64,000 bases of DNA from an uncultured Rhodospirillales bacterium (GTDB lineage Bacteria > Pseudomonadota > Alphaproteobacteria > Azospirillales > Azospirillaceae), in the NCBI GenBank assembly GCA_903856295.1, contig CAIOBP010000097.1, positions 540-64,539 on the forward strand, in the 5' to 3' direction. The notes beneath the pieces were generated by a model. That model saw only the letters and a list, made by a program, of their open reading frames with translations, was not told the origin of the DNA and did no database searches. The stretch's first letter is position 1; every line of letters starts with the position of its first letter. Both the position numbers and the translations under genes were made by a program. Positions 23,652-25,205 of the stretch are shown here, in pieces.

Positions 23652-25205
23652 TCATGAGCGAGCATCCGCCCGCTCGCCCCAATAATCATCCCCGACTCTT
23701 GAGCCCTTTATCAGAGTGTAGAGTGCGATGCCACAGAAAATCATCCCGGAGGCGAATCCAGTATAAGCGCCAATCGAGGAAATGAAGTTCAAACCGGCAA
23801 AGCTGTCGGGATAATCGGGCGTATGGCGGGGCATGCCGTCCAGCCCCAAGACGTATTGAGGGATCATGGTCAGGTTGACACCGACGAACATCGTCCAGAA
23901 TTGAATCTTGCCCCAGAGTTCGGGATATTGCCGACCGGACATCGCGCCGATCCAATAATACCAGCCGCCGAGCGCCGCGAAAACCGCGCCAAGGCTCAAA
24001 ACCAAATGGAAATGGGCGACGACGAAATAGGTGGCGTGAACCGAGACGTCCGGGGAGCCGCTCCTCATGATCGCGCCGGCCGCGCCGCCGAAAATAAAGA
24101 TCACCATGAACCCGATGGCGTAGAGCATCGGGGTTTTGAGGGCCGGCGCGCGGCGCCACATGGTCGCGATCCAAGACAAGAGGATGATGGCGGTGGGAAT
24201 CGAGATGATCAGGATCGCGATGCCGAAGTAGGAATCGGTCTTGAAGCTCATGCCGGACGTATACATCTGCTGCGCCCAGACCACGAAGCCGATCAGGCCG
24301 ATCGCGCACATGGCGTAGACCATGCCCAGGTACCCGACAACCGGCCTTCTGGCAAAGGTCGCGATAATATGACTGACGATGCCGAAAGACGGCACGATCA
24401 TGATGTAGGCCTCGGGGTGACCGAAGAACCAGAGCACGCGCTGAAACAGCAGCGGATCGCCGCCACTCCCGGACTGGAAGAGCGCGCCGCCGGGGGTGCC
24501 GCCCATGACCAGCAGAGTGATGGCGCCGGCCAGCACCGGAACGGTCAGCACCAGCAAAAACGCGGTCACCAGCACCGCCCAAACGAACAGGGGCAGCTTA
24601 TGAAAGGTCATGCCCGGCGCGCGCATGTTGAAAATGGTGGCGATGAAGTTGATCGCCCCGGTCACCAGCGAGGTGCCGGCGAGCAGCAGCGCCAAAATCG
24701 CCAGATCGAGCGAAAGACCGGGCGCGCGCGCCGTGCCGGGCAGCGGCAGCCCCTCCGTCCGCCCCTCGCCGGTGTTCATGCCGACCAAGGTCGAGCCGAG
24801 CAGCAGCGCCAGCGAGGGAATCATCAGCCAGAAGCCGAGCATGTTCAGCCGCGGAAAGGCCATGCCGGAGGCGCCGATCATGGTCGGCACGAGCCAGTTG
24901 CCGAAGCCGCCGATCAGGGCCGGCATGACCATGAAGAACACCATGATCAGACCATGGGCGGTCATTACCAGGTTCCAAGTCTGCCCATCGGGAAACAGCT
25001 GCAGACCGGGCGCCTGCAATTCAAAGCGCATCAGCACGGAAAACAGCGCGCCGACGATGCCGGAGACGACGGACAGGCACAAATACAGTGTCCCGATATC
25101 CGTGTGATGGGTCGAGCACAGCCGGCGACGGAACGACCCTGAGCTGCGACTGTGATGATCGCGGCCAGACGGCGATGCCTCAGCTCCGGGAAATTGATCG
25201 CTCAT
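23652..25205 (-). CDS. A-family heme-copper oxidase subunit I homolog lacking the helix-VII CuB histidines
   Basis: 517 aa with CoxI motifs [77 protein letters not shown] replaces WAHHMYT (CAG CAG at 24267..24272). Confidence 0.9.
   Translation of the reverse strand: [517 protein letters not shown]

Follow-up and report, generated by a model that had tools for sequence, protein, structure and literature searches.

Partial cytochrome c oxidase clusters consisting of ctaBD, together with ctaA, have been described in Acetobacter pasteurianus and other acetic acid bacteria, and a role in stabilising CtaB has been proposed for them (PMC10715153). The same account, citing Matsutani et al. 2014 (BBA 1837:1810), describes a deranged COX1-like gene without conserved metal-binding residues in Acetobacter genomes. 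Here we analyse a gene of this kind in a 64,000-nucleotide stretch of DNA (the window) from an uncultured Rhodospirillales bacterium (GenBank assembly GCA_903856295.1, contig CAIOBP010000097.1, positions 540 to 64,539). It encodes a homolog of CtaD, subunit I of the aa3-type oxidases, in which two adjacent CuB-ligating histidines are replaced by glutamines, and is referred to below as the QQ gene. We propose that the QQ protein, left over from a dismantled A1-type operon, has no catalytic activity and serves as a partner of the heme O synthase CtaB, probably binding heme; as the best explanation of the evidence as a whole, this reading is given a probability of roughly 0.55. Set against the published description, the QQ gene is a further case of the kind already reported in Acetobacter, with the ctaBD remnant as its closest published precedent, and not a new kind of enzyme; its novelty is lowered because that precedent has been published.

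The Acetobacter loci and the window have in common an alphaproteobacterial host, the loss of the aa3 oxidase, an intact ctaD-like open reading frame beside ctaB with mutations at metal-binding residues, and a retained ctaA. While all conserved metal-binding residues are gone from the Acetobacter protein as described, the QQ protein keeps three heme histidines and the H-P-E-x-Y motif. The user of heme O or heme A also differs, being a quinol oxidase in Acetobacter and, presumptively, the B-family-like oxidase of its own gene cluster here. This comparison rests on the published description (PMC10715153), without residue-level alignment.

Canonical aa3 subunit I (1M56/2GSM of Rhodobacter sphaeroides; 1AR1 of Paracoccus denitrificans) shares with the QQ protein the 12-helix fold, about 50-60% identity, the heme a and a3 ligands, the residues H284-E286-Y288 (R. 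sphaeroides numbering) and a place directly upstream of ctaB. By contrast, H333, H334, D132, S197, S201, K362, T352, D412, R482, W172, the TDRNFxTTFF loop and the C-terminal tail of the canonical enzymes are changed or missing in the QQ protein, and within the 64-kb window no genes for subunits II and III, CtaG or Surf1 lie near the QQ gene. Like the QQ protein, gNOR is a member of the heme-copper superfamily with a replaced active-site histidine; it was the first such family to be described, the residues being otherwise completely conserved (Murali et al. 2024, PMC11214002). In gNOR, however, one histidine is exchanged for a metal-binding aspartate in a conserved, B-family-derived protein thought to be catalytic, whereas in the QQ protein two histidines are exchanged for glutamine in an A1-type singleton. 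The active sites of nitric oxide reductase (NOR) type contain three histidines (plus glutamate), or two histidines and an aspartate in gNOR, and have B- or C-family ancestry (PMC11214002); the QQ protein, with one histidine, two glutamines and A1-type ancestry, belongs to none of these groups (cNOR, qNOR, eNOR, sNOR, nNOR, gNOR). In yeast, multimerisation of the heme O synthase Cox10 seems to require newly made Cox1 (PMC7140478), which gives a precedent for an effect of subunit I on that enzyme. The comparison is no more than an analogy, as the system is eukaryotic and its Cox1 catalytically competent.

The gene and the elements discussed with it are located as follows.

23652..25205, minus strand: QQ gene, a degenerate A1-type CtaD-like subunit I of 517 amino acids (aa), CuB-less and with a shortened C-terminus (COX1, TIGR02891 and alignment to 1M56_A)
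24267..24272, minus strand: codons CAG CAG for Q312 and Q313, which align with the CuB ligands H333 and H334 (R. sphaeroides numbering)
25212..25216, minus strand: Shine-Dalgarno-like AAGGA, 6 nucleotides (nt) upstream of the ATG at 25205, read from the sequence

Alignment columns were assigned with phmmer to R. sphaeroides 1M56 chain A, over which residues 263-461 align without gaps at a constant offset of 21. The motifs quoted in the initial annotation were all found at the residues it gave (TAHG with H84, HPEAY at 263-267, WAQQMYT, H390, A391, H398, H400 and GMPRHT), and checking its column assignments against 1M56_A left no ambiguity: there are no histidines at the helix-VII CuB positions. 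Two CuB ligands are gone, as it had claimed, Q312 and Q313 aligning without gaps to H333 and H334, and H263 (H284) is the sole member of the CuB triad (H284, H333, H334) left in the QQ protein. Each of the two CAG codons is a single third-position change away from a histidine codon. The reported losses of the D-channel aspartate (G114, for D132) and of the K-channel lysine (I341, for K362) likewise hold; among proton-channel residues D132G, S197A, S201L and K362I are changed, while N139, E286, T359 and Y288 are retained. Losses that had not been listed before are S197A and S201L in the D channel, T352I and W172R, and the conserved loops GWTxYPPL and TDRNFxTTFF, which face subunit II. About 20 C-terminal residues are also missing, the sole shortening of the protein and one at its natural end; the lost tail left no trace in the 85-nt spacer, read on in frame from the QQ stop codon.

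Two other replacements, at the Mg site (A391, for D412) and in GMPRHT (H461, for R482), are present as first described and have little diagnostic value. Asparagine occupies the Mg-site aspartate column in 15/80 and 20/80 canonical loci, and the arginine-pair column reads R-H in 9/80 and 6/80; with both columns varying among canonical enzymes, the D412 and R482 changes were rejected as diagnostic marks.

The axial histidines H84, H398 and H400 correspond to H102, H419 and H421 (low-spin H102/H421, high-spin H419), and H263, E265 and Y267 of the helix-VI His-Pro-Glu-x-Tyr motif to H284, E286 and Y288, confirming that both sets are kept. Taken from the QQ sequence alone this retention was rejected as evidence of function, since six given residues have a chance of about 21% of all surviving at a loss rate of 23%. 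It becomes meaningful because a second CuB-less family, from the Bartonella group, keeps the equivalent residues in 19/19 members. Taken together, the gap-free alignment upholds the earlier view that the QQ protein is unable to form a normal heme-CuB centre and has lost proton-channel residues. Judged by its residues, the protein cannot reduce O2 or pump protons, and it is probably still able to bind heme via H84, H398 and H400.

By sequence and predicted fold the QQ protein belongs to the COX1 family. The Pfam COX1 model (PF00115) matches the QQ protein with 419.7 bits over profile positions 1-435 of 436, while the equivalog level of TIGR02891 (CtaD_CoxA) is missed (539 bits vs a cut-off of 670.75). 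In phmmer searches of PDB sequences the R. sphaeroides and Paracoccus subunits I were matched with E about 1e-165 and about 1e-159, respectively. An AlphaFold2 model (predicted local distance difference test score 77, predicted template modelling score 0.83) keeps 12 helices and superimposes on 2GSM with a TM-score of 0.84; it draws on canonical homologs in its alignment and is not independent evidence for the fold. Confidence in the model is low for the N-terminal 23 residues, the degenerated periplasmic loops 145-162 and 235-254, and three very short segments. The uninterrupted full-length frame of 517 aa first reported is there: 517 codons with no internal stop, no frameshift and a ribosome-binding site. 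G+C content at third codon positions (GC3) is 0.81, at the low end for the window. The QQ gene is a real, intact gene, and its product a catalytically dead derivative of an A1-type (aa3) subunit I.

Compared with 79 canonical alphaproteobacterial enzymes, the QQ protein differs at 32/143 invariant columns and at 51/224 (23%) near-invariant columns (>=97% conserved), where canonical enzymes usually differ at 0-4. Its mean identity to these enzymes is 54%, against 76% among themselves, and it deviates at 9/57 positions conserved across 67 very diverse A-family representatives. The histidine pair, aspartate and lysine stand at the key positions in 160/160 related loci and in all listed close homologs checked. 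Apart from the protein itself, nothing with more than 62% identity was found among 5.8 billion proteins, 185,579 species genomes and JGI metagenomes. The next matches in the 5.8-billion-protein search are canonical CtaD proteins of Azospirillum, Inquilinus, Skermanella and other Rhodospirillales at 59-62% identity, and the best identity in the scans of the 185,579 GTDB species genomes and of the JGI metagenomes is 59%. The second-best match (P0002) was rejected as a relative, being a chimeric canonical sequence.

A family that resembles the QQ protein was found among A-type subunit I homologs without the histidine pair, in a search of 50%-identity representatives. It comprises 19 sequences (P0233, P0400-P0415, P0419, P0421) from Bartonella and bee-gut relatives, with 42-88% mutual identity, and no description of it was found in the literature searched. 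In query numbering, H84, H263, H398 and H400 are kept in all 19, E265 in 18, and position 267 is Tyr or Phe. Neither helix-VII histidine survives in any member (the pairs are QN, EN, ES, NK, ND, RD and QD), and K341 is replaced by Ile or Met throughout. Like the QQ protein, the Bartonella-group family has lost the TDRNF loop and the W172 loop, and the gene context is common to both: a COX1-like gene directly upstream of UbiA/CtaB, without COX2, COX3 or CtaG (three Bartonella-group loci, one of them in a complete genome). Between two Bartonella-group strains there are 87 differences over 13.5 kb, only two of which fall in the CuB-less gene, both synonymous.

While the query has lost 51/224 of the near-invariant canonical columns, the Bartonella-group family has lost 122/224, and 44 of the query's 51 losses are shared (odds ratio 7.7, Fisher P = 7e-8). 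Of the 68 columns kept in >=90% of Bartonella-group members, the query keeps 63. The positions released and retained are thus the same set as in established members of that group. This overlap is the strongest result of the analysis, and it is not what a neutral pseudogene would give. The Bartonella-group proteins are only 33-38% identical to the QQ protein and have their nearest canonical relatives in Rhizobiales, compared with Rhodospirillales for the query; the family is therefore independent in origin. It is also much older, more degenerate and present in many species, whereas the QQ lineage is a singleton.

Three further candidates were not accepted as comparable degenerate proteins. P0219 (locus L096) and P0232 (L089) were rejected, as their genes lie between COX2 and COX3, and P0236 was set aside, its contig being too short to judge. 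The subunit-I homologs of L089 and L096 lack several metal ligands, heme histidines too, and their COX2/COX3-flanked genes represent another kind of degenerate operon.

The divergence of the QQ gene is not matched by its neighbour. Three-point branch lengths for CtaD are 0.51 substitutions per site in the query lineage and 0.12 in its sisters (4.2-fold), while those for CtaB are 0.27 and 0.15 (1.8-fold). In canonical pairs with comparable CtaB identity the CtaD identity averages 76.5% with a minimum of 66%, against 54% in the query. The window CtaB itself is on average 58% and at most 73% identical to canonical A1-operon CtaB proteins, within the canonical range (63%). The acceleration is specific to CtaD, and the adjacent CtaB evolves normally.

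Neutral simulations from two canonical starting genes, matched to the observed changes, needed about 169 substitutions to reach 23% of the near-invariant columns, and 1-7% of replicates remained stop-free. Strictly hydrophobic columns that became non-hydrophobic numbered 12, compared with a neutral expectation of 20-22 (P = 0.006-0.03), and excess substitution was 0.23 in invariant columns and 0.37-0.64 in variable ones. Bacterial pseudogenes with that many substitutions should also carry frameshifting indels. The QQ gene has neither frameshifts nor premature stops, and its substitution pattern is not random: the excess is greater at variable than at invariant columns, the hydrophobic class is kept, and the losses overlap with those of the Bartonella group. 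The suggestion that it might be a very early decay product does not agree with a frame still intact, 23% of near-invariant columns altered non-randomly and a branch 4.2 times that of its sisters. On this pattern the QQ gene is not drifting freely; it retains an intact frame and ribosome-binding site, and its product has kept the character of a membrane protein.

The QQ gene is the seventh of eight same-strand genes with short spacers. In the order of the cluster, the other seven are:

30124..31491, minus strand: divergent B-family-related heme-copper-oxidase-like subunit I, 455 aa, the first gene of the cluster (Pfam COX1, 36.8 bits)
29640..30131, minus strand: small subunit II, about 163 aa, with a complete CuA motif H...CSEYCGLEHNKM (weak CoxB match; motif from the translation)
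28466..29605, minus strand: CtaA, heme A synthase (Pfam COX15-CtaA, 348 bits; NCBIfam heme A synthase, 303 bits, below cut-off)
27837..28439, minus strand: Sco1/SenC copper chaperone (PF02630, E = 5.8e-44)
25874..27730, minus strand: ABC transporter with fused permease and ATPase, MsbA-related (TIGR02204, 849 bits vs a cut-off of 780)
25251..25847, minus strand: TlpA-like periplasmic thiol:disulfide oxidoreductase, 45 nt upstream of the QQ gene (Pfam Redoxin/AhpC-TSA, NCBIfam TlpA)
22673..23566, minus strand: ctaB, heme O synthase, 297 aa, 85 nt downstream of the QQ gene (TIGR01473, 338 bits vs a cut-off of 210)

In most of the 68 canonical loci with both genes ctaB lies directly downstream of ctaD, and the closest canonical locus (L008) has the order COX2-COX1-CtaB-CtaG-COX3-DUF983-SURF1. 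No trace of A-type COX2, CtaG (Cox11, the CuB chaperone), COX3 or SURF1 was found anywhere in the 64 kb by tblastn with the L008 operon proteins, and the window holds no other oxidase genes beyond the QQ gene and the 455-aa/163-aa subunit pair. Within it the QQ gene is thus not co-encoded with a cognate subunit II (CuA), subunit III or CtaG. It descends from an alphaproteobacterial A1-type ctaD and lies directly upstream of ctaB, with ctaC, ctaE and ctaG absent from the window. The canonical ctaD-ctaB order and the absence of the other operon genes together identify it, on gene order and sequence, as ctaD from an A1-type ctaC-ctaD-ctaB-ctaG-ctaE-surf1 operon that has been dismantled down to ctaD-ctaB. 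The initial annotation had allowed for a heme-binding oxidase paralog; the place of ctaD upstream of ctaB, along with the sequence, instead favours an orthologous remnant of the A1 operon.

Two features of this region were observed in addition. The ctaD-ctaB spacer contains a perfect 17-nt tandem direct repeat, two copies of TTCGATTTGTCACCTTT at 23587..23620 (minus strand), about 20 nt upstream of the ctaB start codon, which could be a regulatory site or a recent duplication. An open reading frame of 259 aa at 21716..22495 (plus strand) is convergent with ctaB and occupies the place where ctaG and ctaE lie in canonical operons; it has no Pfam or NCBIfam match.

The ancestral ctaC-ctaD-ctaB-ctaG-ctaE-surf1 operon has been reduced to ctaD-ctaB, now at the 3' end of the B-family-like oxidase cluster. 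The QQ polypeptide has probably been kept as a partner of CtaB, and could act as a stabiliser, an activator or the first acceptor of farnesylated heme. Heme O from CtaB, and heme A made from it by CtaA, would then serve the neighbouring B-family-like oxidase. A broader proposal, that copper-free, heme-binding CoxI-derived proteins form a recurrent class of dedicated CtaB partners, arisen independently at least here and in the Bartonella group, with acetic acid bacteria as a possible further case, is put forward only tentatively.

The main rival to a retained CtaB partner is recent relaxation toward loss. Under this alternative the operon was dismantled, selection on ctaD was switched off, and the frame remains open for lack of time, with no role for the product. 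The singleton lineage without orthologs, the loss of the C-terminal tail, the low-end GC3 and the absence of the gene from closely related genomes are all as expected for a pseudogene in the making. So too are near-neutral replacements, by BLOSUM, at 23% of near-invariant columns, the stop-free fraction of neutral replicates and the one-in-five chance survival of the six heme and HPExY residues. On the other side, the roughly 169 neutral substitutions required came with no frameshifting indel (the indel expectation being general knowledge), hydrophobic positions are kept beyond neutral expectation, and the losses are non-random and mirror those of an independent, selected family. The mean acceleration, about 2.3-fold relative to CtaB of the same lineage, is also far below that expected from a long, total loss of constraint. 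We consider this alternative unlikely, though it is the most serious one.

Several points, some shared with that rival, weigh against a retained CtaB partner. No ortholog of the QQ gene was found, and long-term retention across related species is thus not seen in this singleton lineage. The copies in four metagenome assemblies are identical and give no measure of QQ conservation, of the lineage ratio of nonsynonymous to synonymous substitution (dN/dS) or of the corresponding polymorphism ratio (pN/pS). The stop-free frame in a small minority of neutral replicates leaves room for recent complete relaxation. Replacements at invariant columns have a mean BLOSUM62 score of -0.37 compared with a neutral -0.70 +/- 0.21 (z about 1.6), only slightly more conservative. 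A generic ranking of weaker and stronger 'invariant' sites, rather than shared function, could explain part of the overlap with the Bartonella group. Finally, relatives with the same upstream module do with a different ctaB and no degenerate ctaD, and a CtaB partner is therefore not universally required.

A second alternative is retention in cis, in which transcription or translation of the frame is needed for ctaB (through coupling, mRNA stability or Rho polarity) and the protein itself is irrelevant. The two genes share a strand and are separated by 85 nt; there is no terminator-like site between them or ahead of them, and a common transcript with the six upstream genes is probable. If 1.5 kb in front of ctaB went untranslated, polarity would be expected. 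Such a constraint would hold the frame open but not the hydrophobic class, and it would neither steer losses to the residues lost in the Bartonella group nor keep 63/68 columns. The GAGG ribosome-binding site of ctaB itself, 5 nt upstream of its ATG, and the length of the spacer speak against tight coupling, and we regard retention in cis as improbable.

A new copper-free heme function, for example as a sensor of O2, NO or CO, as a heme-only reductase or peroxidase, or as an extra subunit of the B-family-like oxidase, would fit the retained heme ligands and H-P-E-x-Y, the predicted intact 12-helix fold and a cluster shared with an atypical 455-aa protein that also has no helix-VII histidine pair. 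It is quite improbable, however: no electron-entry subunit is available as a partner, the positions of the lost histidines are variable in the Bartonella-group family with no new conserved site there, the gene is missing from close relatives with the same upstream oxidase module, and an advantageous innovation is not usually confined to a singleton lineage. That the QQ codons are a sequencing or assembly artefact can be set aside almost entirely, as the same DNA was recovered in four independent assemblies, made from different samples with two pipelines (ENA, Logan) and 99.995-100% identical to the window over 2.8-21.6 kb with the QQ gene included, and as 49 further near-invariant positions are also changed in the protein.

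The upstream part of the cluster has a distribution of its own. The six-gene module (25251..31491) is conserved in L091, L092 and the P0124 contig, ABC transporter included; it is unusual for an operon of oxidase and cofactor-biogenesis genes to have an ABC exporter as a constant part. Relatives whose 455-aa protein is 83-90% identical have the module and lack ctaD-ctaB at its end. They encode another CtaB (38-39% identity) upstream of the module, in some cases together with an A2-type COX3-Sco-COX2-COX1 operon and in others without it. L085 (4547..9704) and L092 (7345..8202) have aconitase, ctaB (285 aa) and the 455-aa oxidase module in common. In L085 the A2-type operon lies between aconitase and ctaB, while L092 lacks it, has ctaB by itself and carries an unrelated minus-strand gene between ctaB and the module. 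In the L085/L092 clade oxidase structural genes are gained and lost, and ctaB is always kept. The A2-type COX1 of L085 was rejected as an ortholog of the QQ gene (34% identity).

The 455-aa family occurs in Rhodospirillaceae/Magnetospirillum, with graded homologs from 89% to 45% identity. It keeps H65, H210 and Q213 (WGGGHVLQF), H340 and H342, and has no conserved helix-VII histidine pair and no tyrosine at the cross-link position; by canonical criteria it too would be without two CuB ligands. A single-sequence PDB search with the 455-aa protein gave no match, and the nearest structure, ba3 of Thermus thermophilus (E = 4e-8), was reached with the family profile only. Whereas gNOR is without CuA, the small partner of the 455-aa family has a complete CuA motif, and the family does not match gNOR. 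It may be an undescribed heme-copper-oxidase-like family. NCBI names it 'cbb3-type', the same label that reads 'cbb3-type cytochrome c oxidase subunit I' on CuB-less A-type Bartonella-group proteins. This naming (seen for P0405, P0407, P0413 and P0237) is systematically wrong and could mislead when respiratory capacity is inferred from annotations.

The CuB histidines are among the most conserved residues of the heme-copper superfamily, and the QQ gene is a natural loss-of-copper variant. For annotation it is a hazard: pipelines call it a cytochrome c oxidase subunit I or even 'cbb3-type', from which aerobic respiration with an aa3 oxidase would be wrongly inferred for this organism. What makes the QQ gene valuable is its youth, together with losses that match those of an old lineage of independent origin. 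With the Bartonella group and Acetobacter it forms a series from young to old, in which identical positions have been given up and identical heme-binding positions kept, always beside ctaB. The 63-68 positions retained are likely to matter for a role as CtaB partner rather than for catalysis. The series offers a concrete, testable hypothesis on the dependence of heme O synthase on bacterial subunit I, which parallels the poorly understood link between mitochondrial Cox1 and Cox10. If CuB-less partners of CtaB do form a recurrent class, the window would be its youngest known example, caught shortly after the switch, and an interaction between subunit I and CtaB at the time of assembly would have become the sole job of the protein once the aa3 oxidase was lost.

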